From: a virus
Strand: one strand, 5' to 3'
DNA length: 64,000 nt
Virus record (IMG/VR): IMGVR_UViG_3300044811_000050
Below, in pieces: positions 1 to 21,193 of the stretch. The translations under genes were made by a program, and so were the position numbers. Position 1 is the first letter of the stretch, and every line of letters begins with the position of its first letter. The notes beneath the pieces were generated by a model. The model was not told where the DNA came from and ran no database searches. It saw nothing but the letters and a program-made list of their open reading frames with translations.

Positions 1-1263
1 TTCACCGGCGGCCCGGAGGCCGGCCCGGCGACCGGGATGACCGACCAGTTCGCCCCGCACCCGACCGGTTCGGATCCGGTGGACCCGCTCAACCAGATGT
101 TCCCGATGCAGCCCACCCCCTGGACTGTCCCACCGGGTGGGGAGTGGAAGGAAAACCCGATGCAGTTCAACCCGCCCGGGGGCGGTTCAGACCAGCAGCA
201 CTCGGCGGCGCACCACGCCGCGCAGATCGGTGACACCGGCACCTGCACCGAGTGCGGGGGCAACATCAAGTACTCGGCGCACGAGCACGGTCGGGAGTGG
301 AACCACACCGGATCCAACTCCTGGCTGCTGGACGACGCGCACGTGCCGGCGCCCACCCGCAACAGCCGCTCGGCGGCCGAGCAGAACCCGAACTACTTCT
401 CCGGCGGCGGCGAGGGCGTGACCGGGGACCCGCAGTCGAGCTTCCCGGCCGATGAGGCCCAGGAAGATCCGGATGACCGGGTCAACGAGCTGTACGGGGA
501 GAGCCCGATCTCGGCCGGCAGCGTCGACAACGGCTACCGGGTGGCCCGGCGCGCGGCGGCCAGCCCCGACAATCCACCGCCGGATTCCGATCCGCTCCAG
601 GGCACCGAGTTCGACTCCCCCGAGGAGCGTGACCGGTGGGGAAAAGCTGAGCGCGGAGAGCAGCAGACCAGCCGCGACTCCTCCGCGTTGATCGGCATGC
701 GGCACGGCGCGCGACGGGGTTTCTACGACCCGAGCGACCCGGGACTGCGCTCGGTAGCCATTGGAGATCAGTTCGGCTCGGACAACCCATTCAGCATGGG
801 CCCGAACCCGACTCCGCCGGCCGGCGCGGGACAGCAGGATTCGAACGTCCCGACTCCGCCCACGGCGAACATCCCGCAGACCACCCCGCCCCGGCAGACC
901 CCGGGCGGTGGGCCGGGGAGCATGCCTGGCGAGGGCGGGCCCGGCACCGACGCCTCGGATAGCGCGGCGAAGAACAACCTGCCGCCGTCGATGGGTCGGC
1001 GGGTGGCCGCCGAGACCTACGAGCGGCCCGACGACGACGACCCGACCGGGGCCGGTGACGAGTACGTGCACAACACCTGGGGCGGGCCGATTACGACCCG
1101 GCCGCGCCAGACCTCCGAGGACCGCAGGATCAACACCCCGCAGCGTCCGCGCGCTCCAATCCCGACGATCAGCTCACCCGGTCCGGGGGCGGACAACGAA
1201 GACGACCGGCGCGAGGCCTCTCGGGTGGCGGACCGGCTGATCCGAGAGCTGGTGGGTGCCTGA
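1..1263 (+). CDS. Head-region low-complexity protein with Zn ribbon (5'-truncated; frame open from base 1)
   Basis: Frame of ORF 37..1263 is open to the window edge; CTECG motif; Pro/Gly/Asp-rich; stop overlaps next ATG (TGATG). Confidence 0.8.
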   Translation, partial: FTGGPEAGPATGMTDQFAPHPTGSDPVDPLNQMFPMQPTPWTVPPGGEWKENPMQFNPPGGGSDQQHSAAHHAAQIGDTGTCTECGGNIKYSAHEHGREWNHTGSNSWLLDDAHVPAPTRNSRSAAEQNPNYFSGGGEGVTGDPQSSFPADEAQEDPDDRVNELYGESPISAGSVDNGYRVARRAAASPDNPPPDSDPLQGTEFDSPEERDRWGKAERGEQQTSRDSSALIGMRHGARRGFYDPSDPGLRSVAIGDQFGSDNPFSMGPNPTPPAGAGQQDSNVPTPPTANIPQTTPPRQTPGGGPGSMPGEGGPGTDASDSAAKNNLPPSMGRRVAAETYERPDDDDPTGAGDEYVHNTWGGPITTRPRQTSEDRRINTPQRPRAPIPTISSPGPGADNEDDRREASRVADRLIRELVGA

Positions 1264-2213
1264 TGGCCTCCTACACGGTCAAGTGCTTCAGCTGCCAGAA
1301 CGTGGGCGTGATCAACAAGATCAGCGCGCAGCTGACCTGCACCTGCGGATCCCGGGACATCGACCTGATCGACCCGGCCGAGATCACCTTCCTGGAGTTC
1401 ATGGGGGTGACCGCCAGCTCCGGCGGCACCGGCTGGAACCACACGATGCCCGACCCGCTGGACGGCTGGGACGAGTACGCCGGCCCGCCGCCGGGGGCCA
1501 ACCCGTTCTCGGCCCCCGCCCCGAACAACCCCTTTGCCTGCCAGGAGTGCCAGGGCACCAAGGTCGACGTCCGGGACGGCGGCACCTGCCGGGCGTGCAA
1601 GGGCACCGGCACTCGGACCCCCACCACGGCGGAAGCACCCGAGCCCATGGTCAAGCGGCATGACTACCCGAGCACCCAGACCAAGATCCCGTTCATGGGA
1701 CGCCATCGCAGCGCCGCGCCGGAGCGCACCCTCCGTTCCCCGGAGGAGGTGATCAAGCACACGACACCTGGCTGGGCAGGCAACAGCAGCGATCCGGGCC
1801 TATGGAATGTCTCGCCCCACCTGAAGACCCGCGATGACAACGCGGCGGCCGAGCGGTACTCCGACGAGGGCCTGGCCTCGGCCCGGGAGAAGGGCTACCC
1901 GATGCACGAGGCGAGCTGCCCGGAATGCGGGCACGCCCCGACGCACCTGGTCAACTCGCCCACCGGTGCCTGGTGGCATTGCCCGAACTGCGGGCCGCTG
2001 GAGAACATCGACAAGCACCCGGAGGTCGACCCGTACAACCCGCCGACCGACTTCAAGCCCAACCCCCGCTCGTTCAAGGCCAGCGGCCGGCGCCGCAAGC
2101 CGACCGTCCGGGTGTTCGAGATGGTCACCGTGGTAGCCGGCAACAACCCCGGCCTGAGCAATCGAGAAGTGGTCACCCTGGTTCGGCGCACCGCACAGAA
2201 ATACCCGGAGTGA
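1263..2213 (+). CDS. Multi-Zn-ribbon hypothetical head protein
   Basis: CxxC pairs CFSC/CTC, CQEC/CRAC, CPEC/CPNC; GC3-rich codons; translationally coupled. Confidence 0.85.
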   Translation: MASYTVKCFSCQNVGVINKISAQLTCTCGSRDIDLIDPAEITFLEFMGVTASSGGTGWNHTMPDPLDGWDEYAGPPPGANPFSAPAPNNPFACQECQGTKVDVRDGGTCRACKGTGTRTPTTAEAPEPMVKRHDYPSTQTKIPFMGRHRSAAPERTLRSPEEVIKHTTPGWAGNSSDPGLWNVSPHLKTRDDNAAAERYSDEGLASAREKGYPMHEASCPECGHAPTHLVNSPTGAWWHCPNCGPLENIDKHPEVDPYNPPTDFKPNPRSFKASGRRRKPTVRVFEMVTVVAGNNPGLSNREVVTLVRRTAQKYPE

Positions 2214-2216
2214 TCG

Positions 2217-2720
2217 GTGACCAACTACCCGCGTGAAGGTGCTCGGATCAGCTACGTCGGCAATGGCAACGACGGGCGAGTCCTTGGCGAGCGCGGGCGG
2301 TTGCTGGCCAGGGATCACCGCAGCGGACACGTGAAGTGGGCCGACAATTCGATCACCATGGTGGACCTGGAGGACATCGCGGCGGTGGCCTCCACCTACG
2401 GCGCCGCCCGCGCGCAGCCACGTGACGAGTTGGATGACTCGCTGGCGGTCGGTCCCATCCAAGCGGTGGGGCTACGCCAGGTGCTCGACACCGAGGGTCA
2501 GGCCGGGGTGCTCAACGCGCTGGCCGCCGCCGGCCAGCTCGGTGGGTTGGTCGGCATCGCCGAGGAGTCGCTGAGCTTCACCGCGCAGCGCATCCGCCAG
2601 GAGCCGGCGTTCCGGGAGGCGGTCGCCCAGCTTGACGACGACGAGGTGGACGCCCTGATCCAACTCGCCGCCCAGGTGCTGCTGCGTGATGCGCTTCGGG
2701 AGGGCCCCGATGCCGATTAG
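2217..2720 (+). CDS. Hypothetical protein (SH3-like N-terminus, helical C-terminus)
   Basis: GTG start after GGAG; coding-like codon bias. Confidence 0.8.
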   Translation: MTNYPREGARISYVGNGNDGRVLGERGRLLARDHRSGHVKWADNSITMVDLEDIAAVASTYGAARAQPRDELDDSLAVGPIQAVGLRQVLDTEGQAGVLNALAAAGQLGGLVGIAEESLSFTAQRIRQEPAFREAVAQLDDDEVDALIQLAAQVLLRDALREGPDAD

Positions 2721-4569
2721 ATCATGTGAGAAATGCGGCGGCCGGATGTCGCCGCGCTGGCCCCGGGCCCGGCAGCCCGACGGTCAGATGTGGTGCCCGA
2801 GCTGCGTGCAGGGCCAGTCCCACGTGCAGACCACGGCGGCGGTCAGCGACCGGCACCCCGACATCAACTGGAAGGTGGCGCGCTTCGGCGTCGCCAACAC
2901 CTCGCTGGGTCGCGCCAGCTTCCAGCTGCCCTTCATCACCGGGGCCACCCAGGACGAGCAGGAGCAGCGGCTGGCCCGACCGGAAGGCTGGGATCACTCC
3001 GGGACCGGATTCCAGCCGGTGCGCTTCGCCATCGAAGGCGCCCGCAGCTACGCCCACAAGCTGCACCTGCCCGACCCGCACGAGCACGACTACAGCCAGA
3101 TCCACCAGAACGCCGACACGGTGCGCACCGTCGGGCGGCTCTACGACAAGCTGCCCGAGCACGACCCGCACGCGATCCCGCACTTCGAGGTCATGCGCGA
3201 CGAGGTGGGTCACCAGTTCCACCACCTGACCCACACCATGGGTGTGCACGTGGAGACCACCGACCACGACCCGTACGCCAACGTGCACGAGATGACCAAG
3301 GACGTGGCCGACAACAAGCGGCTGAAGGTGCTGGGCACTCACGTCACCGGCGCCCACCCGTTCTTCTCCAACCACGAGAACGACCAGTTCCGCGCGGTGC
3401 ACGACTTCTTCGGCCATGCCGCCACCGGGCGGGACTTCTCCCGCCACGGCGAGCAGGCCGCGTTCCTGGCGCACTCCCGGATGTTCTCCGACCGCGCCCG
3501 GCCGGCGATGGCCAGCGAGACCAAGGGGCAGAACACCAGCCTGATCCTCAATGGTCACTTCAGCCCGCAGAAGATCGCGCTGCTGCCCAAGCAGCATTGG
3601 GCGGTCCGCCGTAACGCCGCCGGCTGGTCCGGTGAGGACGTGATCCGGCACGAGCTGGGCCGGCAGAAGGTGCACCAGGTCTACATCGACGGGCACCACG
3701 CCGCCGAGCTGTGCCCCGAGCACCTGCGGATGAAACGGAAGATCAGCGACTTCGCCACCGGCTTGGCCCGGCAGGTGGGCTTGTCCACCCGTTACCCGAC
3801 TATCCAGGCCAGCCCGCCCACCGAGGGCCGCTGCACCGAATGCACCCGGGTATCCGGTACCCAGTCGTTGGAGCATCCGTGGAACCCCCGCGAGCAGCCG
3901 GGCGCGATCCCCACCCAGGAGGAGAAAGTGCCGAATGGGCGCAGCCTGCTGCACCGCCAGCACCGGCCGTACGTGGACGAGTACGCCGAGGTGAAGCCGC
4001 AGATCCAGAGCTACAACCGGCGGATCGCGCTGGCCCACAAGATGGGCAAGCTCGACCGGATGAACGGGCCCGGCCCGATCCGCATCCAGGCACACGACTC
4101 CGGCGACGGCGAGACGATCTTCCATTGCCCGTTCTGCGGCTCCGGTCAGGTCATCGCCCGCAGCGACGGCACGGTGGAGTGCGAGTTCTGCTCGACCGCG
4201 TTCACCGTGCAGGTGCAACCGCAGATGCCGGCGTTCCCGCAGACCATCGACGGGGTGCCCGTGGACGTGCCTGGGATGCCCGCAGGCGGGGCGAACGCCA
4301 ACGTGCCACCCGGAACCGCCCCCGGGGCCGATCCGGGCGCTGAGGGCGATCTGGAGGCTAACAGCGGGCCCCCTGGCGCCGATGATCAGGACGACGGCTC
4401 CGATGGCGGGGACGACGACAAACCGGCGTTCCTGAAGGGCTCCACGCTGCGCACCGCCCAGGGTCAGGAGCTGCCCCGCGAGCACTACATGCAGCACCTG
4501 GCGCTCGCTCACGCCCGCGACCGTGACGCGGTGCTCGCCCAGGTCCGCGTAGAGAACGGGAGAGGCTGA
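2710..4569 (+). CDS. Multidomain head polyprotein: Zn ribbon + HDxxGH putative metalloenzyme domain + C-terminal Zn ribbon
   Basis: ATG 2710 after GGGAGGG; FRAVHDFFGH...GEQAA...ETKGQN motif; C-terminal HCPFCGSG...CEFC. Confidence 0.8.
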   Translation: MPIRSCEKCGGRMSPRWPRARQPDGQMWCPSCVQGQSHVQTTAAVSDRHPDINWKVARFGVANTSLGRASFQLPFITGATQDEQEQRLARPEGWDHSGTGFQPVRFAIEGARSYAHKLHLPDPHEHDYSQIHQNADTVRTVGRLYDKLPEHDPHAIPHFEVMRDEVGHQFHHLTHTMGVHVETTDHDPYANVHEMTKDVADNKRLKVLGTHVTGAHPFFSNHENDQFRAVHDFFGHAATGRDFSRHGEQAAFLAHSRMFSDRARPAMASETKGQNTSLILNGHFSPQKIALLPKQHWAVRRNAAGWSGEDVIRHELGRQKVHQVYIDGHHAAELCPEHLRMKRKISDFATGLARQVGLSTRYPTIQASPPTEGRCTECTRVSGTQSLEHPWNPREQPGAIPTQEEKVPNGRSLLHRQHRPYVDEYAEVKPQIQSYNRRIALAHKMGKLDRMNGPGPIRIQAHDSGDGETIFHCPFCGSGQVIARSDGTVECEFCSTAFTVQVQPQMPAFPQTIDGVPVDVPGMPAGGANANVPPGTAPGADPGAEGDLEANSGPPGADDQDDGSDGGDDDKPAFLKGSTLRTAQGQELPREHYMQHLALAHARDRDAVLAQVRVENGRG

Positions 4570-5700: not shown

Positions 5701-5712
5701 ACCGATGGCTGA
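5101..5712 (+). CDS. Free-standing HNH homing endonuclease
   Basis: CYYCG...EHKIPIVRGGSHTKSNIVPGCKRCNLRK HNH motif; N-terminal C-x4-C...C-x2-H finger; lower GC3. Confidence 0.93.
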   Translation: MTLALAEPETECSAERCGKVQPNGMCRSHYQRAWRKANAEHLKAKKAEWYQQNRETVIQRSRVRQDADPERAAAYRRRWAVENAEHKAQLDRAWVVANRDRYLLHMKSGRARRKARMAAAPVCDFTSSDWLELLEEHEHRCYYCGSDEDLQQEHKIPIVRGGSHTKSNIVPGCKRCNLRKGRLTDGEFGNKLRALLIPRETDG

Positions 5713-7948
5713 GGACCAGCCGAAGATCACCGATCGGCGTGGGGCCCGGCGAGGCGGCCCGAGTGGGTTGATCGTGCCCACCTCGGCCCAGGTGACGGCC
5801 GCGACCCGGGGGCGACTGCCCGCCGAGGGTGTCACCATGCCGGCGCCGGGCTATGCCCCGCGCCGTGACGGGCTCGGTCCCGACGGCGTGATCGAGGAGA
5901 TGCGCCGCAACCGGGCGGTCAACCGGCGCACCGGGATCCGGCGGACCGGCACGATGGTCGGCGGCGGTGGCGCGGCCGGATTCGGCGGCGGGGCGGACGT
6001 CACCTTCGCCACCGGGCGCCCGCGCGACCCGATGTTTTACTGGCGACAGAACAACATTCCTTACGACGTCACCAAGGACGACGAACTCAAGAAGATCCGG
6101 GCATTCTGTCGGCTGCTCTATTTGACCCACCCCATTGTTTCCGCCTGCATCGACATCTTCTCCAAGTTCCCCTTGCAGGGCATGACGTTCGAATGCAAGG
6201 ACGACCAGCTCACCGATTTCTACGGCGAGTTGTTCTTCGATGAGCTGAATTACGAGGAATACCTGCTCGACATCGGCCGGGAATATTGGTTGACCGGCGA
6301 GGCGTGGCCGCTGGGGTCTTGGAACGCCCAGCTCGGCGTGTGGGACGGCGACGAGCTGCTCCAGCCCGACGACGTGGAGGTGGAGCGCTCCCCGTTCCTG
6401 AAGGACCCCCGGTTCCTGATCCGGCTGCCGGCGACCCTGCGCAAGGTGCTCCAGGAGCGGAGCCCGCGCTGGGAGTACGACGCGCTGATGAAGGCCTACC
6501 CGGAGCTGGCCGCCTACGCGGGCGAGAACGCGCTGATGCCGGTCAGCAACATTTTGCTCAAGCAGATGAAGTTCAAGGGCGACACCTTCCACAAGCGCGG
6601 CCTGCCGATCCTGATGCGCGGCTTCCGGGCCATCGTGCAGGAGGAGATGCTCAACGCCGCGATGGATGCCGTGGCCGACCGGCTCTACACCCCGCTGGTG
6701 CTGGCCAAGCTCGGCGCGTCCGCCTCCGATCTGGGCACCGAGGCGCCGTGGATCCCCACCAAGGGGGACCTGGAGGACTTCGAGGAGGCCCTGGACGCCG
6801 CGCTGGCCGGCGACTTCCGGGTACTGACCCACCACTTCGCCATCGACATGGAGCCGGTGTTCGGCCGGGAGAACATGCCCGACATGAGCCCGGACTTCGA
6901 GCGCATCGAGGACCGGATCCTCCAGGTGTTCGGGCTGAGCCGGACCATCCTGCAAGGCGCCGACCGGGGCGAGACCTACGCCGCCGACGCGCTCAACCGC
7001 GACGTGGTCACCCAGCTGCTGACCCACTACCAGCGGGTGCTGGTCTCCTTCTATAAGGACCGGGCCATGATCGTGGCCGAGGCCCAGGAGCACTTCGACT
7101 ACGACGTCCGCAACGGCCAGCGCTACGTCAAGATGGAAGAGATCCTGGAGGTCGACGAGGAGACCGGGGAAGAGCGCATCGTCGAGCAGCCCAAGCTGCT
7201 CATCCCGGACCTGAAGTTCGACACCATGACCCTCCAGGACGAGTCCACCGAGCGGCAGTTCATCGAAGCGCTGCGCGAGTCCGGCATGCCGCTGTCCAAC
7301 AAGCGCCGGCTGCTGGGCACCGGGATCGACTTCGACGAAGAGGTGGAGGCGCTCTCCCAGGAGCAGGTGCAGCTGGCCGTCGCCGAGCAGGAGAACCGCC
7401 GGGAGACCTTCAAGGGGTTGCGCGATCAGGGCCTGCCGATCCCCGACGATCTGGCCGCCGACTTCCAGCCCAAGGCCGTCCAAGCCACCCAGACCCTCGG
7501 GGCCGGCGGTCAGGACGAGGTCATTCCCGCGCTCGGCCAGCAACCGCAGGACCTGCCCGCGTTGGCCCCCACCCAAGAGGATCTGGCGGCCGGCGAGGAG
7601 GACGGCTCGGCCGACCCGGGCGCGGCCATGGGCCAGCTGGTGCCGATGCCCATGGCGATGGCGCCGCCGAGTCGCCCGCCGGAGTCCGACGAACAGAGGA
7701 GCGGCATGCCCAAGCCGGCCAAGCTCGCCAAGCACGCAGTCAAGTTGGGGATCCGGGAGGCCACCCGCAAGCACTACGAGGCCCCGGACAACTCGATCGA
7801 GGACACCCAGAACGACGACGGCAGCGTGACGCGGCGGCCGGAGAACTACCGGCCCACCGGCCGTTTCGGCCCGCCGCAACACGTCGGGATGCGCCGACAT
7901 GTGGAGATCGACGAGCGCGCCAAGGCGCCCCGAGAGGAATCAGCCTGA
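5705..7948 (+). CDS. Portal protein
   Basis: 747 aa; HPIVSACIDIFSKFPL and GLPILMRGF motifs, acidic C-terminal tail; synteny with Bxz1-like head genes. Confidence 0.85.
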   Translation: MAEDQPKITDRRGARRGGPSGLIVPTSAQVTAATRGRLPAEGVTMPAPGYAPRRDGLGPDGVIEEMRRNRAVNRRTGIRRTGTMVGGGGAAGFGGGADVTFATGRPRDPMFYWRQNNIPYDVTKDDELKKIRAFCRLLYLTHPIVSACIDIFSKFPLQGMTFECKDDQLTDFYGELFFDELNYEEYLLDIGREYWLTGEAWPLGSWNAQLGVWDGDELLQPDDVEVERSPFLKDPRFLIRLPATLRKVLQERSPRWEYDALMKAYPELAAYAGENALMPVSNILLKQMKFKGDTFHKRGLPILMRGFRAIVQEEMLNAAMDAVADRLYTPLVLAKLGASASDLGTEAPWIPTKGDLEDFEEALDAALAGDFRVLTHHFAIDMEPVFGRENMPDMSPDFERIEDRILQVFGLSRTILQGADRGETYAADALNRDVVTQLLTHYQRVLVSFYKDRAMIVAEAQEHFDYDVRNGQRYVKMEEILEVDEETGEERIVEQPKLLIPDLKFDTMTLQDESTERQFIEALRESGMPLSNKRRLLGTGIDFDEEVEALSQEQVQLAVAEQENRRETFKGLRDQGLPIPDDLAADFQPKAVQATQTLGAGGQDEVIPALGQQPQDLPALAPTQEDLAAGEEDGSADPGAAMGQLVPMPMAMAPPSRPPESDEQRSGMPKPAKLAKHAVKLGIREATRKHYEAPDNSIEDTQNDDGSVTRRPENYRPTGRFGPPQHVGMRRHVEIDERAKAPREESA

Positions 7949-7990
7949 TCCTGTCCTGACATTCCGGGGCACCAGGTAAAAGGTGAGGAG
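7949..7990 (+). promoter_or_regulatory. Bipartite motif copy 1 (TCCTGTC-N22-AAAAGGTGAGGAG)
   Basis: Intergenic; spacing shared with 7 other copies. Confidence 0.7.
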
Positions 7991-7997
7991 GTGCACC

Positions 7998-8333
7998 ATG
8001 GGATTGGGTAACAGGAATGCTCGGCACCACGACACCGAGGCCGTGCGTCGGCACGCCGTGAATAGCGAGGATTACGCCGATTTCCGGGCCGATCAGCGGG
8101 TCATGACGGCGGACGGCATCCTCGGCACGGTGACCGCCGTGGAGGACGGCCCCTACCCCGGCACCGAGGGGTATCTGGTCACCCTGGACCACGGCTTGGG
8201 TGGCGGGCTGTACCGCACTTCCGACCTGCGTGACGCCAGCACCACCACGGCCAGCACCGAGCACCAGGCTTCGGAGGATTACCCCGAACTCGGCGACATC
8301 CTGACCCGTCGGCCCGACATCGCTCAGGGGTAG
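7998..8333 (+). CDS. Hypothetical protein (SH3-like)
   Basis: ATG 7998 after GAGGAGG. Confidence 0.8.
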   Translation: MGLGNRNARHHDTEAVRRHAVNSEDYADFRADQRVMTADGILGTVTAVEDGPYPGTEGYLVTLDHGLGGGLYRTSDLRDASTTTASTEHQASEDYPELGDILTRRPDIAQG

Positions 8334-8641: not shown

Positions 8642-9056
8642 TCAGCTGAACACGAACCAGGCGCCATTCCCCGAGGAGCTGGCCAGCCTGGTCGACAGGT
8701 GTGCCTACCGGCCTGGCTGGACGGTCGTGTTGAGCGACTTCGACCGAGGCCAGGGCAGCTCCGGGCTCACCCTGGTGATCACCACGAGCACGGTTAACAC
8801 CTACCGCCCGGACGAGCCGATCAGGGTCAACCACCTGTTCCCGGTCCCACCGGCCGCCTACGACGAGCGCTCCTGGCGGCGGTGGCTGTTCGAGCAGTTC
8901 CGCCTGGTCGAGTCGCACGAGTGCGCGGAGTTCTTCCAGATCGACGGCGAGCGTCCTTTCGCTCCGAGCCACGGGCCGGGGAATGATCCCTATCTGATCC
9001 GTGAGCTGGGGACCGATCTCGATCGCAGGACCACTTTCCGGGGCGAGGTGCGATGA
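8625..9056 (+). CDS. Hypothetical protein with HExxE motif
   Basis: ESHECAEFF..DGERPFAP; ATGA-coupled to next gene. Confidence 0.8.
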   Translation: MALMSDQLNTNQAPFPEELASLVDRCAYRPGWTVVLSDFDRGQGSSGLTLVITTSTVNTYRPDEPIRVNHLFPVPPAAYDERSWRRWLFEQFRLVESHECAEFFQIDGERPFAPSHGPGNDPYLIRELGTDLDRRTTFRGEVR

Positions 9057-12000
9057 CCTTCGATGCCTGGGCCGCGCTGGACGACGAGGCCCCCGAGCAG
9101 GGATCCACGTCACCCACGGCCCCCTCCGCGTGCTCGTACTGCGGCGGGGCCGAGTTCGACGCGCCCACCGACAACGGCAAGGTGTCCCGGGCCACCTGCA
9201 CGGCGTGCCAGGGCACCATGGTCAGCCACGACGGGGTCTACTGGCAGCCGGACCTGATCGGCCAGCCGGACAACCACCCGAGCACCCAGGCCGACCCGCG
9301 CTCCGGCGGGGTGGGCGGCATCGGGGACGTCCCGGTGGTGCGCCGCGAGGAGGACCTCAACAGCCGCACCGCCGGCTTCGAGAACCGCATCACCTTCCGC
9401 CAGTACCTGCCCGGGGAAGACGAGCACGCCGACCTGGACAGCCACGACCCCGGCTGGGCGCATGGCCTGCTGGAGGCCCACGGCAACGCGGCCGAGCCGA
9501 TCGGGCGGATGGAGTTCTCCGCCGGCCCGGACACCGTCAAGATCCACGAGACCCGGGTGCACCAGGACCACCGCCGCCAAGGCGTCGCCACCGCGTTGAA
9601 TGACCGGCTGACCCAGCTGTTCCCGCACCACGAGATCGACCGGGGCGCCGCCACCGAGGACGGCGAGAAGTTCCGTCAGAGCCTGGCCGGGGTGGACTGG
9701 TGCCGGCACCGACGCGGCGAGCATTGCTGGCTGCCCCGCAACGACTCGCAGAGCGGCGGCTTCGCGCTCTACACCCCGCAGGACCGAGGAGTCTGCCCAT
9801 GGACCACGGCCAGCATGCAGCAGATCAACTGCCCGATGTCTGAGCCCGGACCGATGGCCGGCATGGAGCGCGCGGGCGTCCTGACCGACCCGGAGATGCG
9901 TTTCCACGTGCTCGCGGCGTGGCGCGACGTGCGGGCCAAGGCCAAGCGGATCCGCGCCGAGGGCGGCGTGTCCATCGTCTCGGTGCTCGCCGACGGGATC
10001 ACCGGGCACGTCAACGGGGACACCGGCGTCTACGAGAGCCAGATCAACTACGTGCCCGGCTCGTTCAAGATCGGGCATTGGCAATGCGGCTGCGCCTGGG
10101 CCAGCTACGCCTGGGGCCGCAGCCCCGCCTTCAAGAGGTTCGAGGGCCGGATGTGCTCGCACGCGCTGGCACTCCAGTACGAGGCGCAGAGCCGGGGCAT
10201 GTTCGGCAAGGAGGTCGCCGAGGACACCACCCGGCCCGGCTGGATGCGGGACAAGGTCCGGGTCCGCCACGACCGGGTGACCCGTGATCACGACGTGCGC
10301 GCGGCCAGCCTCCAATCCGGGTTGGACCCGGACGGGGTGTATCCAACGGGCCACGGCCTGGACTTGGAGGGTGCGCCGATCCACGCGTTCGCCAGCGAGG
10401 CCTTCGCCGCGCGCCGCGACCCGGCCGACGCCATGCGGGTGTTCCTGGCCGCCGGCATCGAACACACCGACGCGCGCCGCATGCTGGACGCCATCGCGGT
10501 CGGCGATCAGAGCCTCCACATGGAGGTTCAGCGCACCTTCGACAAGGTGCACGACGACTACCGGGAGCGGCACCAGGACGACCACGAGCTGGCCGAGACC
10601 TACGAGCCGCTGAAGAAGTCGGACCTGCCCGAGGAGCACCACGCCGGCTGGCGGTTCAACTCCAACGCCGACGCGGCGCCGAAGAATCAGTTCCACGAGC
10701 TGTTCTCCACCATGCCGGGCGGCTGGGACGGGCCGACCCACGACACCGACGCCCACCACGCGCCGGTCGCGCTGACCAAGTACCGGCACCCGTCCGGCAT
10801 CGAGCCGCTGCACCTGGACGAGCACGGCCAGGCCTGGGCCCGGCACTTCACCTCCCGGCCGCGCCAGGACGGCGCGCACAGCCCGGTCTTCGATCATTGG
10901 TCCGGGCCACACTCGGCGATGGATGTGATCCACAGCCACCCGACGTTCAGCCAGCGCGACGGGAAGGTCAACTGGCGTTCCCACGCCGAGCGGATGCAGC
11001 TGTCCAGCACGCTGCCCGAGGAGTCCTACCAGGACGTCCACCAGCGGAAGATGCGCAAGCTGCGCGACGCCGGCTGGGGTGTGGTCGGAGCCAAGGGGGA
11101 CGACGAGGCACCCAGCGAGCCGACCCACGCGGGCGTGGTGCTCAAGGCCGCCGACACCGGCCGGATCCTGATGATCCAACGCAGCCATCAGGACGAGACC
11201 GACCCGGCCGCCGGCACCTGGGAGTTCCCGGGAGGCGGGCGGGAGGACGGTGACCATACCTCGCTGCACTCCGGGATCCGGGAATTTGAGGAGGAAGTCG
11301 GCCAGGAATTCCCGACCGGCGGGCACGTCAGCCACGTCTGGCAGTCCCCGAACGGGGTGTACCAAGGCCACGTGGTGGTGGTGCCCAGCGAGAGCGCGAT
11401 CGACTTCAGCAACGGCCGCCGCACCACCAACCCGGACGACCCGGACGGCGACGACCACGAGCAGTCCGCCTGGTGGGATCCCGACCACGCCCGGAAGAAC
11501 CCGGCCTTGCGCCCGGAGTGCAAGGCGAGCCCCTGGGACAAGATCAAGACAGCCAGCCTGGGTACCGAGGCGGGCATCTTCACCCGCAAGCCGGTCGGGC
11601 CGGACACCCGGCCGCCGGTGGACCCCGCCGACGAGAAGCCGATGCGGGCCTGCGACGGGTGCAAGGGCTGCGCGGTATGTGGCGACAAGTCGGTGGCTGT
11701 GGACACCCTGTGGGACCACGGGTTCTGCCCCCAGCACCTGCACGAGCGCCAGAGCGGGCAGGACCCGATCCGTGACGGCGGTCGGCTGAAGCCCGTATTG
11801 GCCGGCGCCCACCACGTCGGGCGGAGGCACGTCACCGGCGAGTATGCCTCCGGTGACTACCTGGAAGACATCGGGGTGGACCCGCGCCCGAATCCCCCGC
11901 CGAAGCGCCCTGAGCCCGACCAGGCCGCCAATCCCGGCTCCACGGGCTGGGCGAGCGGCCAGGACCCGCCGGAGTGGGACGGGGCCGCTCAGAACCCCGG

Positions 12001-12475
12001 AACCATGTCCCTGACGTCCTGGTCGACCCTCCATGACGAGCCAGAGCCCGCGCTGCCGTCCACCGACGGGGCGGAGGAGACCGAGGGTGAGCGCTACCGG
12101 GCCCAGATGCGCCCGGAGATCGACCCCACCGAAGACTCAGCGCCCAGCGACGGGCGGACCGCCAGCGTCACCGACATCGTCGAACGCTTCCAGGCCACCG
12201 CCGGAGCGCGAGCACTCCAGCAGCAGAGAGGATCAGAGGCCATGGACATCGCCAGCGCCGCGCGAGCGCACCTGGAGGACGGCGGCATCCGCCGGACCGC
12301 GCTGAAGGAGTTCAGCTCGGCCGAGCAGGCCGCGCTCATCACCGAGGGTGCCGGGGGCACGCCCGCCCGCAACTTCGACGATCTTAAGATCGAGGGCACC
12401 CACTACGCCGACCTGGCGGCGGCTCTGGCCAGCGAGCAGAGCCTGACCGAGGCCGCCGACGAGCTGTTCAGCTAA
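9053..12475 (+). CDS. 1140-aa head polyprotein: Zn ribbon, GNAT-like, Cys-rich, SWIM finger, Nudix hydrolase, Zn finger
   Basis: HRRQGVATAL (GNAT motif A); CGC...CSH (SWIM); GGGREDGD...REFEEEVG (Nudix box). Confidence 0.85.
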   Translation: MTFDAWAALDDEAPEQGSTSPTAPSACSYCGGAEFDAPTDNGKVSRATCTACQGTMVSHDGVYWQPDLIGQPDNHPSTQADPRSGGVGGIGDVPVVRREEDLNSRTAGFENRITFRQYLPGEDEHADLDSHDPGWAHGLLEAHGNAAEPIGRMEFSAGPDTVKIHETRVHQDHRRQGVATALNDRLTQLFPHHEIDRGAATEDGEKFRQSLAGVDWCRHRRGEHCWLPRNDSQSGGFALYTPQDRGVCPWTTASMQQINCPMSEPGPMAGMERAGVLTDPEMRFHVLAAWRDVRAKAKRIRAEGGVSIVSVLADGITGHVNGDTGVYESQINYVPGSFKIGHWQCGCAWASYAWGRSPAFKRFEGRMCSHALALQYEAQSRGMFGKEVAEDTTRPGWMRDKVRVRHDRVTRDHDVRAASLQSGLDPDGVYPTGHGLDLEGAPIHAFASEAFAARRDPADAMRVFLAAGIEHTDARRMLDAIAVGDQSLHMEVQRTFDKVHDDYRERHQDDHELAETYEPLKKSDLPEEHHAGWRFNSNADAAPKNQFHELFSTMPGGWDGPTHDTDAHHAPVALTKYRHPSGIEPLHLDEHGQAWARHFTSRPRQDGAHSPVFDHWSGPHSAMDVIHSHPTFSQRDGKVNWRSHAERMQLSSTLPEESYQDVHQRKMRKLRDAGWGVVGAKGDDEAPSEPTHAGVVLKAADTGRILMIQRSHQDETDPAAGTWEFPGGGREDGDHTSLHSGIREFEEEVGQEFPTGGHVSHVWQSPNGVYQGHVVVVPSESAIDFSNGRRTTNPDDPDGDDHEQSAWWDPDHARKNPALRPECKASPWDKIKTASLGTEAGIFTRKPVGPDTRPPVDPADEKPMRACDGCKGCAVCGDKSVAVDTLWDHGFCPQHLHERQSGQDPIRDGGRLKPVLAGAHHVGRRHVTGEYASGDYLEDIGVDPRPNPPPKRPEPDQAANPGSTGWASGQDPPEWDGAAQNPGTMSLTSWSTLHDEPEPALPSTDGAEETEGERYRAQMRPEIDPTEDSAPSDGRTASVTDIVERFQATAGARALQQQRGSEAMDIASAARAHLEDGGIRRTALKEFSSAEQAALITEGAGGTPARNFDDLKIEGTHYADLAAALASEQSLTEAADELFS

Positions 12476-15409: not shown

Positions 15410-17224
15410 GTGCTTCAGAAGTTCGCTGTCACGCAGATTCTCGGGGCGCGGCTCGCTGACGGCCATTCCCCGGCCCTAATGCGGACCGCTCATCGCGCTC
15501 AGTTCAACTACACGCCCCGCCCGGGGTATCTCTATGTGCGTTCCCGAATGATTTCGTCGCGGTGCAACGACAACTACGACGAATTCCCGGCCGAGGAAAT
15601 CGAGCGAGGTTACCGCTCTTTCATCGGCAAGCCGGTATTCGTCAACCACCACAATGAAGATCACCGGCGGGCGCGCGGGGTGATCATCGACGCGGTGTTG
15701 CACAAGGACGCCAACCCGGACGGCTCCCCGGACAGCTGGGTCGAAGGCTTGCAGGAGATCGACGCGCTGACCTACCCACGGTTGGCCAAGGCGATCATCG
15801 CCGGGGACATCGACCGGACCTCGATGGGCGTGGACGTGGCCTACTCGATCTGCTCGGTGTGCGCCAACAAGGCCACCACCCCGCTGGAGTACTGCCGACA
15901 CATCCCGGCCATGAAGGGGATGAAGGTGCTGCGCCGGACCGCCGACGGGAGCAGCCGCTCCGAGCTGGTCCGGGAGCGCTGTCACGGGCTGAGCTTCTTC
16001 GAGAACTCCCTATTGGTAGAGGAGCCGGCCGATCCGACGGCGTACTTCCTCGGCCAGGTGGAACGCGGCCCCGGGCTGGAGCACCTGGGCCAGCGCAGCG
16101 CCACCCACACCACCGCCGCGCCTGCGCGGGTGTACATGCACCGGGGCGGGCCGGCGTACACCCAGAACACCACCGCCGCCGGTGTCCAGCGGCTTTCCGT
16201 GACCCACGGCGGCATCTGCCGGTCCTGCCATGGTGAGGACACGCTGCGGTTCCAGGGCTCCACCGAGTGCCTGGACTGCGGTGTGGTCACCGGGCCGATC
16301 ACCCACGACGCCTCGCTGACCGCGCCGTCCATGGCGCGCGAAGGCAAGTATTCCTTCGACATGCGCAAGAACCCGGAATGGAAATCCGACCCGGGCAGCC
16401 ATCCGATCTGGCACGACCTCGGGGCCAGCGTCAATCACATCGTTCACCATTGGGACCAGGCCAGACCGCCGGAAAAGGCCGACGGCAAACGCTGGTACCC
16501 CGACGCGCACCTGGTCGCCCATCACTTCGCCCAGTCCACCGGGCATTCCACCCATCAGGCCGCTGGGGTGCTCTCCGCTTATTCGCCGAAGATGGAGTGG
16601 GGACAGAACCTTCACCACGCCATCCGCTCTCTGCACGAGGGCCGCGCGATCACCTCGGCCGAGGGCGCCAACGTCATGGCGCTGCACACCAACGCCGCCC
16701 AGCGGATCATGGATGGTGAAGACCACCAGCAGGTGTTGAAGGGGCCGAAGACCAACGCCTTCGCCCACACCATCGAGCACGGGGGCCGGGATCCCCAGAC
16801 CGGCGGGCCCTCCCATCGGGTGGTGGTGGACACTCACGCCGTCTCGGTCATGTGTGGTCGCCGGTTGAGCAAGGAAGAGAAAGCGGACGCCGCCAGCGCC
16901 ATTGGCCATCCGCATTTCTATCAGCACGCGCAATCTCTCTACCAGCAGGCCGCCGCGCACCTTTCCGCGAGGGAAGGTCGAGAAATCGCCCCGCACGAAG
17001 TGCAGGCCACCACTTGGGGTGTGCGCAAGCGGATCAACGACGAGGACGAAGACTTCAAGAACAAGGGCAATCAGACCCTTGAACGCAAGAACCGCGAGAA
17101 GTGGCAGGACTACCACAAAGAGCACACGGACAGCGGATTCGCCAGCGAATCCGCCGAGCCGGGCATGCGGAATATGCACGCCCGGCGGAACGCGTCCTCC
17201 CGGGGCCGCCGGGGGCGACGCTGA
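15410..17224 (+). CDS. Capsid maturation (prohead) protease fused to a Zn ribbon and an HhH-GPD-like domain
   Basis: PVFVNHH, TSMG and FFENS motifs of HK97/assemblin-type Ser proteases; lies ahead of scaffold-like and capsid genes. Confidence 0.75.
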   Translation: MLQKFAVTQILGARLADGHSPALMRTAHRAQFNYTPRPGYLYVRSRMISSRCNDNYDEFPAEEIERGYRSFIGKPVFVNHHNEDHRRARGVIIDAVLHKDANPDGSPDSWVEGLQEIDALTYPRLAKAIIAGDIDRTSMGVDVAYSICSVCANKATTPLEYCRHIPAMKGMKVLRRTADGSSRSELVRERCHGLSFFENSLLVEEPADPTAYFLGQVERGPGLEHLGQRSATHTTAAPARVYMHRGGPAYTQNTTAAGVQRLSVTHGGICRSCHGEDTLRFQGSTECLDCGVVTGPITHDASLTAPSMAREGKYSFDMRKNPEWKSDPGSHPIWHDLGASVNHIVHHWDQARPPEKADGKRWYPDAHLVAHHFAQSTGHSTHQAAGVLSAYSPKMEWGQNLHHAIRSLHEGRAITSAEGANVMALHTNAAQRIMDGEDHQQVLKGPKTNAFAHTIEHGGRDPQTGGPSHRVVVDTHAVSVMCGRRLSKEEKADAASAIGHPHFYQHAQSLYQQAAAHLSAREGREIAPHEVQATTWGVRKRINDEDEDFKNKGNQTLERKNREKWQDYHKEHTDSGFASESAEPGMRNMHARRNASSRGRRGRR

Positions 17225-17957
17225 CGCCGTAGGCCCCCGGCTGGCTTACGGCGAGACCAAGGCGCCCGCCGAGGTGGACACTTTGCGGGACGAGAGCTGC
17301 CCGGTGTGCGGGGAGGACTCCGCCTGGGACGGCGATGAGTGCAAGGTCTGTGGCTTCGTCGCGCCGCCGGACAAGTTCGGTGACCCCGACGTCGACATGC
17401 ACAAGAAGCTCGACCTGCGCAACAACGACGACCTGGACGGTGGCGACGTCGCCGACCTCAACGCCGATACCAACGACCGGGACGGCGACGGGTTCGACGA
17501 CAACACCGGCGAGCCGATCACCGACGAGGACCAGGCCGGCGCCGACGACGTACAGCCGATGCTGTCCTGCCCGAGCTGCGGCTACGAGGTGGAGGCCGGC
17601 GAGCCGGTCAGCACCAACACCGCCGACCCGACGATGGGCGACGCCGGAGCCGGCCCGGCCGCCGGGGACCTGTGCCCGAACTGCGGCAAGGCCCCGCTGG
17701 AATCCCCCGGCGAGCTGACCGAGGAGGGCATGCCGGCACCGGAGGACGCCGAGCAAGACCCGGCTGAGCTGGATGCCGAGTTGGATGCCGAGGAAAACCC
17801 GGAGCAAGACCCGAACGCCATTCCCGACAATGACGACGAAGCGCCGGGAGAAAAGCCCTTCGCCGACGATGGGGATGAAGAAGAGGACGACGAGGAAGAC
17901 GGCCAGGACGACGAAGAGCCGCCTGCCAAGAAGCCCTTCCCACCACGGAAGAAATGA
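17214..17957 (+). CDS. Acidic double-Zn-ribbon segment, probably the protease C-terminus in the +1 frame
   Basis: RLAYGETKAPAEVDTLRDESCPVCG...; coding-like from about 17214 but no convincing RBS/start. Confidence 0.65.
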   Translation, partial: GDADAVGPRLAYGETKAPAEVDTLRDESCPVCGEDSAWDGDECKVCGFVAPPDKFGDPDVDMHKKLDLRNNDDLDGGDVADLNADTNDRDGDGFDDNTGEPITDEDQAGADDVQPMLSCPSCGYEVEAGEPVSTNTADPTMGDAGAGPAAGDLCPNCGKAPLESPGELTEEGMPAPEDAEQDPAELDAELDAEENPEQDPNAIPDNDDEAPGEKPFADDGDEEEDDEEDGQDDEEPPAKKPFPPRKK

Positions 17958-17994: not shown

Positions 17995-18930
17995 ATGTCC
18001 CGTCCCGCGCTCGCCGCCCTCGCGGAGCAGCAGCAACTGATCAATGCCCAGGCCCAGAGGATCACCGCCCAGGACCGCCAGCTCGCGGCCCAGAGCCAGA
18101 TCATCGGGCAGTTCAAGCGAGCCTTCGCCAGCCAGCGCAACGAGATCGTCGCGCTCGGTCGGGGGCTGCGGGCCATCGCCCAGGCGGCCGGCATCGAGGG
18201 CCATGTGCGCACCGCGATGCTGCGTACCGCCGACGAGCAGAACCCGGCCGAGCCGGTGCCCGAGCCGCCGGCCGTGCCGCCGACCCAGACCACCCAGGAC
18301 GCCAAGACCCCGGAGGCCTTCGGCGACGTGCAGGCGCCGGGGTTGGTGCCGGGCTCGACTAACGACGTGGCGGCGGACGCGACCAGCACCGTCTACACCC
18401 CGGGGGACGACATCCCGGGCCCGGCGGTGAAGAACCTCCAGGACGTCACCGCCCCGGTGGACGGCACCCAGAACCCCCGGCCGCTGAACGAGGTGCGCAC
18501 CCTGACCGACGTGCGGGTGGGTGACCCGATGAACCCGCAGACGGCGTTCCCGCTGCGTGGTGACTTCGCCAACGCCCAGCGGCTGGGGGCCAAGGAGGCC
18601 GCCGGCAACCGCACCATGGCCGCGCTGCGACTGGCTCGGCTGCGGATGCAGGCCGGGGTGGCCCAGGGTGACTCCGACTTCGAGGTGGCCGCCGGCATCG
18701 AGCGGGACGCCGCGATGACCACCGAGACGATCGAGGCCGAGATCAGGACCCTGGACGGGGTCAGCAAGGCCGCCGCCGCCAAGCAACAGCGCCCGGCTGG
18801 TCTGGTGCCCCGCGCGGCTTCGGCCAACGGCGGGCGCAGCGTGCCGTCCATGCAGCAGGTGACCGCCGGCAACGGCGGCGCGGCGGCCACCGACGACGAC
18901 GTGGCCGACGCGGACCTGTTCCTGAGCTGA
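17995..18930 (+). CDS. Scaffold-like head protein
   Basis: N-terminal coiled coil, acidic C-terminus DADLFLS; AAGGAG RBS; directly upstream of capsid genes. Confidence 0.7.
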   Translation: MSRPALAALAEQQQLINAQAQRITAQDRQLAAQSQIIGQFKRAFASQRNEIVALGRGLRAIAQAAGIEGHVRTAMLRTADEQNPAEPVPEPPAVPPTQTTQDAKTPEAFGDVQAPGLVPGSTNDVAADATSTVYTPGDDIPGPAVKNLQDVTAPVDGTQNPRPLNEVRTLTDVRVGDPMNPQTAFPLRGDFANAQRLGAKEAAGNRTMAALRLARLRMQAGVAQGDSDFEVAAGIERDAAMTTETIEAEIRTLDGVSKAAAAKQQRPAGLVPRAASANGGRSVPSMQQVTAGNGGAAATDDDVADADLFLS

Positions 18931-18972
18931 GCTTGCCCCCTCCCCTCCCGGACCCGGGGGAGGGAGCGACGG

Positions 18973-19010: not shown

Positions 19011-19015
19011 CATCT

Positions 19016-19519: not shown

Positions 19520-19566
19520 GAGGCCGAATATAACGGCCGAATGTCACGGCTTGATCACAAGGGCGG

Positions 19567-19609
19567 TCCTGTCATTTTTGTCCCGAGACCCCGGCTAAGA
19601 GGTGAAGGG
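19567..19609 (+). promoter_or_regulatory. Bipartite motif copy 4 (TCCTGTC-N23-AAGAGGTGAAGGG)
   Basis: Upstream of the capsid genes. Confidence 0.8.
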
Positions 19610-19662
19610 ACAGGGCACTCCAGAAGGGGCCCTCCGCATTCTCGGAGAATGGAGGAAGAAAA

Positions 19663-20178
19663 GTGCTCCGAGTGCCACTTAACAAGTCCTACATTAAGCG
19701 GACTATCCGTCCATTGTATGGATGGACCCAGGCGACCCCGAAGAGTCAGTTCATCGACCCGGCGTGGAACAGCGCGGTAGATATCTACCCGGGCATGGTG
19801 ATGATGAAGACCGTCGGGGAGTCGGTGTCGCTGATCGACGCGGTCGGCAAGCCGATGGGCCTCGCCGCGTTCTACATGGCGCCGGTCTACGGCATCGACG
19901 AGATCACCGAGCAGGGCGTCAACGCCGCTGCGGTGTGGGTGCTGGACCCAGACGCGGAGTTCGAGGTGCTGGACCCGGCCTTCGACAGCACGTTGTCCTG
20001 GGTGGAGCCCACCGACGGCACCACGCTGCTGATCGGTGCCTACACCTCCGGCGCGAAGCGCGGCCGACTGTGCCCGATGGGTACCGCCGGCGCGACCGCC
20101 AAGGCCGTCGCCAAGCTGATCAAGGTCAGCTCGGCGACCAAGATCACTATCGGTGGTCTTTCGCCGAGCGATCTCTAA
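19663..20178 (+). CDS. Capsid-associated (decoration/minor capsid) protein
   Basis: 171 aa immediately upstream of the major capsid gene; GGAGG RBS, GTG start. Confidence 0.7.
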   Translation: MLRVPLNKSYIKRTIRPLYGWTQATPKSQFIDPAWNSAVDIYPGMVMMKTVGESVSLIDAVGKPMGLAAFYMAPVYGIDEITEQGVNAAAVWVLDPDAEFEVLDPAFDSTLSWVEPTDGTTLLIGAYTSGAKRGRLCPMGTAGATAKAVAKLIKVSSATKITIGGLSPSDL

Positions 20179-20206
20179 CCCACAACCAGCGAAGAGGAGG
20201 AAGTAC

Positions 20207-21193
20207 ATGAGCGCACCTGTCCTCGCTGGTGGGGGTTTGAGGCCCCGGCAGGCGAAGAAGAGCGACGACTACGTCAGCAAGATCCTTGCGCGGCAGCAGA
20301 ACGGCCAGGGCCTCACCCACGAGGGCAAGGTCGACAAGATGGCCCTGATCCTCTCCGACGAGGTCAGCGGCATCAAGCGGCTCGGCGTGGGCATGATCGG
20401 CCCGATCCAGCTGAAGCTGCGTTACCAGGGCATCACCCGCAACGTGCTGATCGAGGACCCGGTCACCCCCGGTACCCCGGTCGAGTACGACGTGTGGGAC
20501 GACCTGGGCCAGGCCTACATCATGTCGGGCCACGAGGGTGAAGTTCGGATCACGCCCTTCGAGGGCAAGCGCGTCCCGGTGCGGTTCTTCCGCATCGCCT
20601 CGCGCCCGGCGATCCGCAAGGAGGACCTGCTCTACCTGCGCATCAACGCGGTCGAGCAGGCCCAGGACGAGACCAAGCAGGCGATCCTCAAGCAGGAGGA
20701 CGCCCGGCTGATGGTGCTGCTCCAGGCGGCGGTGAACGACTACGCCACCCGGGCCGACCACATCGTCACGCCCAACCACAACGTCACGGAGACCTCGGGC
20801 TACTACACCCCGGCGTCGCTCTACACCGCCGTGGCGCAGACGGACATGCACGAGCTTCAGTCCGCCCGGCTGATGGTCAACCCGTATGACTACCGGGACT
20901 TCTTCCGGTGGGACATCAACACCACCGGCTGGGCCTTCAAGGACCGCGTGGTGGCCGGCGAGACCATCACCACGTTCGGCGAATTCCAGATCCAGCGCTC
21001 GATCATGGTCCCGCAGAAGACGATGTTCCTGACGCCGGAGCCGAACTTCCTGGGTGTCTTCCCGGTTCTCTACTCCCTGGACGTGGAGGAGAACCACAAC
21101 GTGGAGGCGTTCTGGAAGGGCTGGGTCTTCGACGAGATGGTGTCGATGGCGATCCTCAATCCGAGAGGAATTGCCACCATCACGAAGCCCTGA
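20207..21193 (+). CDS. Major capsid protein
   Basis: ATG 20207 after GAGGAGG; 328 aa; HK97-type C-terminus GWVFDEMVSMAILNPRGI; very strong codon bias. Confidence 0.92.
   Translation: MSAPVLAGGGLRPRQAKKSDDYVSKILARQQNGQGLTHEGKVDKMALILSDEVSGIKRLGVGMIGPIQLKLRYQGITRNVLIEDPVTPGTPVEYDVWDDLGQAYIMSGHEGEVRITPFEGKRVPVRFFRIASRPAIRKEDLLYLRINAVEQAQDETKQAILKQEDARLMVLLQAAVNDYATRADHIVTPNHNVTETSGYYTPASLYTAVAQTDMHELQSARLMVNPYDYRDFFRWDINTTGWAFKDRVVAGETITTFGEFQIQRSIMVPQKTMFLTPEPNFLGVFPVLYSLDVEENHNVEAFWKGWVFDEMVSMAILNPRGIATITKP

Follow-up and report, generated by a model that had tools for sequence, protein, structure and literature searches.

A short Ala-ending motif at the module joints of actinophage head proteins, a candidate cleavage code of the head protease

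The head genes at positions 1 to 21,193 of IMG/VR virus record IMGVR_UViG_3300044811_000050 (the 64,000-nucleotide stretch of DNA analysed here, called the window below) encode chains of unrelated domains, enzymes among them, and raise the question of what the short sequences repeated between these domains are. The sequence-only reading of this DNA had listed 26 instances of the motif (R/K/T/V)-x-A followed by a small residue, and proposed that the prohead protease cuts after the Ala and frees enzymes that are then ejected with the DNA. That observation is partly confirmed by our analysis and its interpretation partly supported. We consider it probable that the motif is a head-protease cleavage code which separates the modules of capsid-loaded polyproteins. 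All 26 instances are present in the open reading frames (ORFs) to which they had been assigned, except that P-R-L-A↓Y (the arrow marks the candidate cut) lies in the +1 frame past the stop of the protease ORF. In the window lie the head and tail genes of an uncultured actinophage of high GC content and myovirus-like character, kin of the Cluster C mycobacteriophages (Bxz1, Myrna) and of Rhodococcus phage Finch. Its closer relatives are eight viral-metagenome loci (L003-L010), with protease domains 63-80% identical to that of the window, and its distant annotated ones are Mycobacterium phage ScoobyDoobyDoo and Finch, with about 40% identity in conserved parts.

Read as loosely as above, the motif stands weakly above composition. 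The pattern [RKTV]-x-A-[AGS] occurs 57 times in the head-region proteins, against 39.4 expected from residue shuffles (z 3.0), and 122 times against 104.8 (z 1.9) in the remaining genes of the window. These two values, and the resemblance of several listed instances to background, are what would be seen if the pattern were a by-product of an Ala/Arg-rich, high-GC proteome and of examples picked by eye. The core motif is narrower, namely [R/K]-[T/Q]-A followed mostly by A, S or G, sometimes with L or another residue at P2; P3 is R or K, and not T or V (P1 is the Ala, P1' the residue after it). Counted over the window's seven large head proteins, RTA is present 9 times against 1.9 expected (rank 2 of 8000 tripeptides, p 1.5e-4), or against 3.5 under a first-order Markov null (p 0.009), and the tail and other genes of the window have no [R/K]-T-A excess. 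Glu motifs of the T4 and phiKZ type are not enriched in the head proteins ([AGS].E 106 vs 105.5; [LIV].E 70 vs 66.3). Some of the instances first listed are probably background: T-E-A↓G, V-V-G-A↓K, R-I-Q-A↓H and the sites of gene 1, which neither motif counts nor homologues support.

The expected difference between head and other proteins, modest in the window alone, is clear for the core motif in the relatives. An unbiased scan of all 8000 tripeptides was run on the large head proteins of ScoobyDoobyDoo (gp81, gp89, gp90) and Finch (gp12, gp13, gp16, gp17), 6555 residues together. KTA ranks first (22 vs 2.1 expected, p 1e-15), RTA third (15 vs 2.1, p ~1e-8) and RQA fourth (11 vs 1.5), and the remaining proteins of the two loci show no comparable tripeptide excess. 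When the middle position is left open in the scan, R.A and K.A are the top patterns behind C.C. Finch gp12 carries eight [K/R]-K-T-A sites at a spacing of 45-130 residues. Across the 114 kilobases and 156 ORFs of Finch, the four most enriched products are gp12, gp13, gp17 and gp16, which lie around the portal and the protease and hold 28 sites against 3.3 expected, while all other ORFs summed have 39 against 32.3. For the 1140-residue protein, encoded just downstream of the portal, a library of 1.84 billion proteins yielded 1523 representative homologues, the 150 best of which span lengths of 332 to 3088 residues. When the motif was counted in 149 metagenomic homologues sharing at most 50% identity, KTA was found 220 times against 38 expected and RTA 223 times against 67.5, about three sites per protein (p 2e-41 and 3e-19, respectively, under a first-order Markov null). 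Of 432 family sites, 54% have A, S or G after the Ala; at the best-conserved ones the residue is K, H, D or Y. The short motif is over-represented in head proteins only, and is common to the capsid protein and the protease itself. An origin in composition is excluded for the core motif by what independent relatives show, both in the unbiased scans and genome-wide, and also by the exact insertion of a GNAT cassette described below; we regard that explanation as very improbable. The terminase large subunit of Finch (L002 1-2109) has 3 [RK]TA against 0.35 expected, which may be chance.

The preferred residue at P2 is Thr in most genomes and Leu in L006-L008, across several of their proteins. In head proteins of this sub-lineage the middle residue is mostly Leu (for example 5 against 0.7 expected), and the protease chains of L007 and L008 are without [RK]TA. 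The shift from Thr to Leu suggests a lineage-specific change of protease specificity, a pattern that would be expected from co-evolution with the protease pocket.

The position of the motif supports the view that it marks the joints between modules of the head proteins, and that modules have been swapped exactly there. In the window, the 1140-residue protein reads S-R-T-A↓G, a 105-residue GNAT cassette, and Q-S-L-A↓G-V-D-W-C, while in L003, which has no cassette, it reads S-R-T-A↓G-V-D-W-C; the cassette therefore lies exactly between two sites. L007 and L010 have the counterpart of the small gene 7983-8333 joined to the N-terminal end of the large protein, and there R-R-Q-A↓A or S-K-T-A↓G follows at about the place where the window gene ends. 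The protease ORF of the relatives comprises 750-1419 residues; in L005 it continues through the Zn-ribbon/acidic part and the scaffold-like protein, and ScoobyDoobyDoo gp90 and Finch gp17 terminate in the tail of the scaffold. All of these chains have [R/K]-x-A before the protease domain and before the Zn-ribbon module, and most have a further one after the protease domain and another before DUF7178. In an all-against-all comparison of the 149 homologues, the ends of homologous stretches concentrate in the 14 residues leading up to [RK]TA, at a density of 3.5x against 1.05 +/- 0.16 for random positions; 0 of 1000 permutations came to the observed figure. The AlphaFold model of the 1140-residue protein has a mean predicted local distance difference test (pLDDT) score of 62, with confident domains at residues 21-70, 111-200, 281-420, 441-509 and 690-835 and a weaker one at 1039-1130. 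Nine of its ten listed sites fall at domain borders or in low-confidence linkers, as had been claimed, but H-V-L-A↓A lies within a confident helix. The four [RK]TA sites (residues 107, 834, 1037 and 1083) are each at a border or in a linker. This placement is weak evidence when taken alone, because 44% of the model is of low confidence.

Most of the enzymes named in the sequence-only reading could be recovered among the modules. The Nudix domain (PF00293) scores 39.8 bits against a cut-off of 21.1, and the residues of its R-E-x-x-E-E-x-G box (R743, E744, E747, E748 and G750) are invariant in 45 homologues. The excised GNAT cassette alone (PF00583) scores 28.4 bits against a cut-off of 20.7. 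The conserved core of the same protein contains a C-x-C-x20-C-x-H pattern which we take to be a SWIM zinc finger. In several GenBank records this core is annotated as a 'LysM-like' protein or an endolysin, as in ScoobyDoobyDoo gp89 and Rhodococcus phage E3 gp76, with matches in Phabba and Tonenili; the pattern sits inside a confidently modelled alpha/beta domain, and the 'LysM-like' label looks wrong. The HDxxGH domain that had also been counted among the enzymes, in the 627-residue protein, is phrog_3170, for which an atlas search returned only viral hypothetical clusters and a weak resemblance to M78 peptidases (TM ~0.3). The C-terminal R-T-A site of that protein is kept in its L007 homologue. 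For the other modules of the 1140-residue, 627-residue and scaffold-like proteins, Pfam at E <=1 gave Zn-ribbon-type noise only, and it found no peptidase match in the module proteins.

The candidate agent of cleavage is encoded in the same gene block. Residues 58-207 of the 604-residue protein match phrog_18299 ('head maturation protease', E 8.3e-22), and phrog_2774 was also matched. The T-S-M-G serine pointed out earlier is indeed conserved: H54 (in V-N-H) and S112 (in T-S-M-G) are invariant in 11 sequences with identity down to 39%. In eight close relatives, [R/K]-x-A↓H-R directly precedes the catalytic domain. A comparison with HK97 gp4 by hhalign gave a local match only, which places the Ser motif on G-M-S-V-G-F at a probability of just 1.4%.

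The protease carries, towards its C-terminus, the HhH-GPD-like domain of the earlier reading, DUF7178 (PF23802), modelled with a pLDDT of 91.5. In VIA-align, enzymes of the HhH-GPD fold take the first 22 places, 20 of them DNA glycosylases and the other two DUF2419 queuine-salvage entries; the best is Tm1821 OGG (Z 11.4, root-mean-square deviation 3.4, 175 residues aligned; values of Z below ~13 may be a generic match for helical proteins), and the next unrelated match has a Z of 4.5. Foldseek gave AGOG with a probability of 0.94 and E 0.15, and nothing at E <=0.001. Because one fold forms an unbroken run among the top matches, the model assigns DUF7178 to the HhH-GPD glycosylase-like fold. 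Its K122 and D149 are invariant; in the model the first opens helix 121-131 and the second immediately precedes helix 150-157. They may correspond to K120 and D138, the catalytic pair of endonuclease III.

The motif also recurs in the scaffold-like and major capsid proteins. In an alignment of eight scaffold-like orthologues, [R/K]-x-A↓D follows the coiled coil in six (the other two have His or Val at P3), and [R/K]-x-A, mostly followed by Ser, lies ~36 residues from the C-terminus in all eight. Most of them also have x-T-A or x-Q-A, then G, S or A, ~20 residues before the acidic D-L-F-type tail; ScoobyDoobyDoo gp90 and Finch gp17 have R-T-A at this C-terminal site. In ten relatives the capsid protein begins with G-L-x-(x)-[R/K]-x-A, then [K/I/R]-x-S-D-[D/E]-Y-V, with Q, T, I, V or F at P2. 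The longest capsid ORF of the window starts at GTG 20153, and all relatives begin at a Met equal to ATG 20207, which is probably the true start and gives a predicted propeptide of 16 residues.

These positions agree with the parallel drawn earlier with herpesvirus assemblins, which cut after Ala, and would extend it to R-site-like and M-site-like locations. In the UL26 protein of pseudorabies virus, the R and M sites are Y-L-Q-A↓T and V-Q-A↓S (PMC4498786). The likeness to UL26/UL26.5 is one of arrangement and sites: an N-terminal serine protease and a scaffold in one polypeptide (L005, ScoobyDoobyDoo gp90, Finch gp17), and sites with Ala at P1 that is preceded by Gln or Thr and followed by a small residue. 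One such site comes directly after the protease domain, and another lies ~20 residues ahead of a C-terminal tail that binds the capsid, or in the phages may do so. The T=16 shell of the relatives, with an extra protein between the hexamers (PMC7150772), is a further point of resemblance. In contrast to herpesviruses, P3 is basic and not hydrophobic, passenger enzyme modules lie between protease and scaffold, and the unit is split into three reading frames in the window.

Several points weigh against cleavage by this protease. The RTA excess of the window is not significant after correction for 8000 tests, and enrichment there is modest. Chance alone would place [R/K]-x-A about once in every 90 residues, too often for any single site to be identified confidently, and an R-R-T-A occurs within the protease domain. 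At the break-points the reversed control A-T-[RK] shows an increase as well, ~2.1x, so that linker composition accounts for part of the break-point signal. A Pfam search with the protease domain, and PDB searches with a single sequence and with a profile, returned nothing usable from which specificity could be argued, and the searchable literature on Cluster C, Myrna, Finch and E3 phages holds no cleavage, virion-content or ejection data, the cryo-electron microscopy paper on Myrna dealing with capsid geometry only (PMC7150772). The biased linkers, the missing family match of the protease and the silence of the literature on cleavage would all suit a motif that is real and is not cut by the head protease, such as a linker signature, a docking or targeting peptide, or a site for a host protease or another modification. 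We give this explanation a small share of the probability. Its difficulty is that [R/K]-x-A is found at places where such proteases are known to act: it occurs at the capsid N-terminus, flanks the protease domain on either side and recurs ~20 residues from the end of the scaffold (compare the herpesvirus sites in PMC4498786), and that a fixed P3 and P1 with a free P2 is a protease subsite code, comparable to A-X-E in SPN3US (PMC10052503). The codons of the motif also differ at synonymous positions among the window sites, so the signal lies in the protein and not in the DNA; this rules out a DNA-level motif, including a recombination signal.

For a protease code there is precedent in phages. 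The head protease gp245 of SPN3US recognizes A-X-E at 14 sites in nine proteins (PMC10052503, PMC5694885). With T4 gp21, phiKZ gp175 and SPN3US the present case would share a short three-residue code with a free middle, numerous sites spread over several head proteins, a protease that processes itself, N-terminal capsid propeptides and processed proteins packaged with the DNA, features that here are predicted. Unlike in that group, P1 is Ala and not Glu, so that the system would work like the group without belonging to its specificity class, and the sites part whole enzyme modules in long chains instead of just removing propeptides.

If the motif is cut as we suppose, the long proteins would be co-assembled into the prohead, probably through their conserved terminal modules and the scaffold-like acidic, hydrophobic C-terminal tail. 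The head protease would then cut after Ala, releasing the scaffold as at the herpesvirus M site and setting GNAT, SWIM, Nudix and the HhH-GPD-like DUF7178 free as separate polypeptides within the capsid, and at least some of the enzyme modules would leave with the DNA at infection. The scaffold-like protein or polyprotein ends in acidic residues and [L/V/I]-F in nine of the ten genomes L001-L010 (S-F in L007); the 1140-residue protein has the same tail in the window (12440-12475) and in L003, the scaffold tail of the window being at 18895-18930. This shared tail may be a capsid-docking tag, and the conserved C-terminal module that bears it is at least as good a candidate for the anchor as the Zn ribbons that had been proposed.

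Delivery is the step at which a further explanation has to be weighed, namely that the proteins are cut as assembly components (core, scaffold, propeptides), with the pieces degraded or expelled or the enzymes acting in the producing cell, and with nothing delivered. The cut modules could indeed be degraded and expelled like scaffold fragments, a point that counts against delivery; propeptides and scaffolds, once cleaved, generally exit the head (PMC10052503). Sequence that is acidic, Pro/Gly-rich or of low model confidence makes up much of these proteins, and the protease, the Zn-ribbon acidic protein and the scaffold-like protein form one assembly polyprotein in relatives. However, folded enzyme modules have been kept and shuffled from one head protein to another with intact signatures (R-E-x-x-E-E in Nudix, R-x-x-G-x-A in GNAT, the invariant Lys and Asp of DUF7178). 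The Nudix module recurs within the protease polyprotein of L010 and, in other phages, in proteins annotated as portal, as portal-MuF fusion (Arthrobacter phages Sonali and Mufasa8) or as capsid maturation protease (Pseudanabaena phage Pam4). MuF-type and portal-fused head proteins, which bear enzyme or toxin domains at the C-terminus, are thus a comparable kind. No MuF domain was detected in the window proteins. T4 (Alt) and P1 are moreover familiar examples of phages that package enzymes, and packaging is likewise predicted for polyvalent proteins (PMC5512222). On this evidence we judge this further explanation to be improbable.

In their layout the module proteins also resemble the polyvalent proteins of phages and conjugative elements. 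In these, effector-type domains with no relation to one another, GNAT among them, follow each other in long chains; the genes lie next to portal and late genes, and packaging in the capsid is predicted (PMC5512222). The paper describing them (Iyer, Burroughs, Anand, de Souza and Aravind, 2017) already lists GNATs that stand alone in the late region of a Cluster C mycobacteriophage (Alice gp113; PMC5512222). The window has this layout, with GNAT, SWIM and Nudix in one 1140-residue protein and the HhH-GPD-like domain on the protease. It differs in that built-in peptidase domains (e.g. MPTase) were proposed for polyvalent proteins (PMC5512222) and none was found here by Pfam, that the joints share their motif with the capsid protein and the head protease, and that one chain is fused to the head protease. 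A wider version, which we put forward tentatively and hold to be less likely than not, would extend this to a whole clade of actinophages, more than 200 cultured Cluster C mycobacteriophages included: any cassette placed between [R/K]-[T/Q/L]-Ala↓small joints of a head polyprotein would be loaded, freed by the assemblin-like protease and delivered with the DNA. Within a T=16 shell, the same Ala-P1 code would also govern a unit of protease and scaffold whose sites resemble R and M.

The P-R-L-A↓Y site lies at one of the breaks in the protease-scaffold unit of the window. The Zn-ribbon/acidic part belongs to the protease polyprotein in L005, L006, L009, L010, ScoobyDoobyDoo gp90 and Finch gp17; four relatives are fused in frame at the junction, and in L007 and L008 a GTG start lies 4-5 codons upstream of A↓Y. 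In the window, the joint peptide has no ATG, GTG or TTG upstream in the +1 frame. The differences between the window and L003 (about 7150-7200) are mostly synonymous in that frame, and the two have CGC CGG GGG CGA C in common just before the stop. GGG CGA is a candidate +1 shift site, and the junction a candidate programmed +1 frameshift which would add the Zn-ribbon/acidic tail to a fraction of the protease chains. CGA was considered as a strikingly rare codon at this site; at 8% of Arg codons, this is not a strong argument.

The coordinates of these features and of their neighbours are collected in Table 1. The DNA of the region is 65-70% GC, and its head genes are on the + strand. The gene order is that of ScoobyDoobyDoo and Finch: large unknown proteins, HNH endonuclease, portal, small genes, the 1140-residue protein, small genes, the 604-residue protease protein, the acidic Zn-ribbon protein, the 311-residue scaffold-like protein, and the minor and major capsid proteins. 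DNA similarity to the phage collection is restricted to the capsid gene, with ScoobyDoobyDoo (genus Myrnavirus, Cluster C) and Finch; near-identical DNA was sought there and only short capsid-gene matches were obtained. An Rfam scan of nucleotides 1-22500 gave no match. The product of Myrna gene 98, equivalent to the minor capsid protein, lies between the hexamers of the T=16 shell (PMC7150772). Gene 1 (5'-truncated) and the genes for the 316-residue and 312-residue (14201-15139) proteins encode Pro/Gly/Ser-rich, partly Cys-rich, low-complexity sequences, for which neither a family match nor a homologue in the fetched loci was found; we infer that the 316-residue protein is part of the system from its position only. 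The head module is interrupted by three homing-endonuclease-like genes, and relatives have just ~150 nucleotides where the window has the endonuclease VII gene.

Table 1 Features of the head region of the window. Positions are nucleotides unless given as residues; aa, amino acids; an arrow marks the candidate cut.
Feature	Position	Strand	Description
316-aa Cys-rich low-complexity head-region protein	1263..2213	+	R-R-T-A↓Q 5 residues from the C-terminus, P1 codon 2193-2195
627-aa protein	2686..4569	+	N-terminal Zn ribbon, viral-only phrog_3170 domain (residues 46-306), second Zn ribbon, acidic tract
627-aa protein, candidate sites	2836-2838; 3616-3618; 4456-4458		T-T-A↓A; R-R-N-A↓A (end of phrog_3170 domain); L-R-T-A↓Q
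HNH gene	5101-5712	+	5' of portal; E 1.5e-11
Portal protein	5705..7948	+	phrog_2833, E 1.4e-149; without [RK]TA site
116-aa 'N-module' gene	7983..8333	+	Own N-terminus G-L-G-x-R-x-A↓, P1 codon 8019-8021
1140-aa multi-module protein	9053..12475	+	Downstream of portal; Pfam, AlphaFold, comparison with L003, L007, L010
1140-aa protein, Zn ribbon	residues 21-70		
1140-aa protein, GNAT cassette	residues 108-212, nucleotides 9374-9688		
1140-aa protein, SWIM-finger domain	residues 281-420		CxCx20CxH at 10085-10162
1140-aa protein, helical unit	residues 441-509		
1140-aa protein, long low-confidence stretch	residues 510-685		
1140-aa protein, Nudix	residues 690-835, nucleotides 11120-11557		Followed by Cys-rich insert
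1140-aa protein, conserved C-terminal module	residues 1038-1140		Acidic E-L-F tail
1140-aa protein, best candidate cut sites	9371-9373, 9686-9688, 10304-10306, 11552-11554, 12161-12163, 12299-12301		P1 codons
604-aa prohead protease protein	15410..17224	+	Protease residues 33-211, linker with Zn ribbon, DUF7178 residues 340-538
Protease, candidate sites	15488-15490; 16100-16117; 17192-17194		M-R-T-A↓H before domain; R-S-A↓T and T-T-A↓A after it; R-R-N-A↓S
Junction	17213..17273	+	Protease ORF stop 17222-17224; P-R-L-A↓Y-G-E-T-K-A-P in +1 frame downstream
Zn-ribbon and very acidic tail protein	17274..17957	+	Minimal ORF from first GTG
311-aa scaffold-like protein	17995..18930	+	N-terminal coiled coil, acidic D-L-F C-terminal tail; 8-orthologue alignment
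Scaffold-like protein, sites	18229-18231; 18817-18819; 18865-18867		[R/K]-x-A↓D; [R/K]-x-A↓S; V-T-A↓G
Endonuclease VII family gene	19016-19519	-	Between scaffold-like and minor capsid genes; E 1.5e-19
Minor capsid protein	19663..20178	+	Homologue of gene just upstream of capsid gene in ScoobyDoobyDoo and Finch
Major capsid protein	20207..21193	+	phrog_2522, E 8.9e-101; N-terminal G-L-x-x-R-x-A↓K-K-S-D-D-Y-V, P1 codon 20252-20254
HNH_3/NUMOD4/HTH gene	21194-21724	-	Directly after capsid gene

Early-acting functions are suggested by the passengers themselves, namely the acetyltransferase, the Nudix hydrolase and the DNA-glycosylase-like domain attached to the protease; to our knowledge nobody has so far sought such functions in these phages. 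If the code is real, a plain sequence scan would predict capsid-borne enzymes in a large and widely used phage group, that of Bxz1, Myrna, Finch and hundreds of metagenomic relatives, and foreign proteins could be loaded into such capsids by the same rule. Beside the Glu-P1 class of T4 and the giant phages there would then be a second specificity class, with Ala at P1. The Ala-P1 class is that of the herpesviruses and, together with the protease-scaffold layout and the T=16 shell of the relatives, bears on the shared ancestry of tailed phages and herpesviruses. Should the clade-wide version prove true, capsid maturation of the herpesvirus kind would have a bacterial counterpart in this lineage, one that has become a device for delivering effectors.

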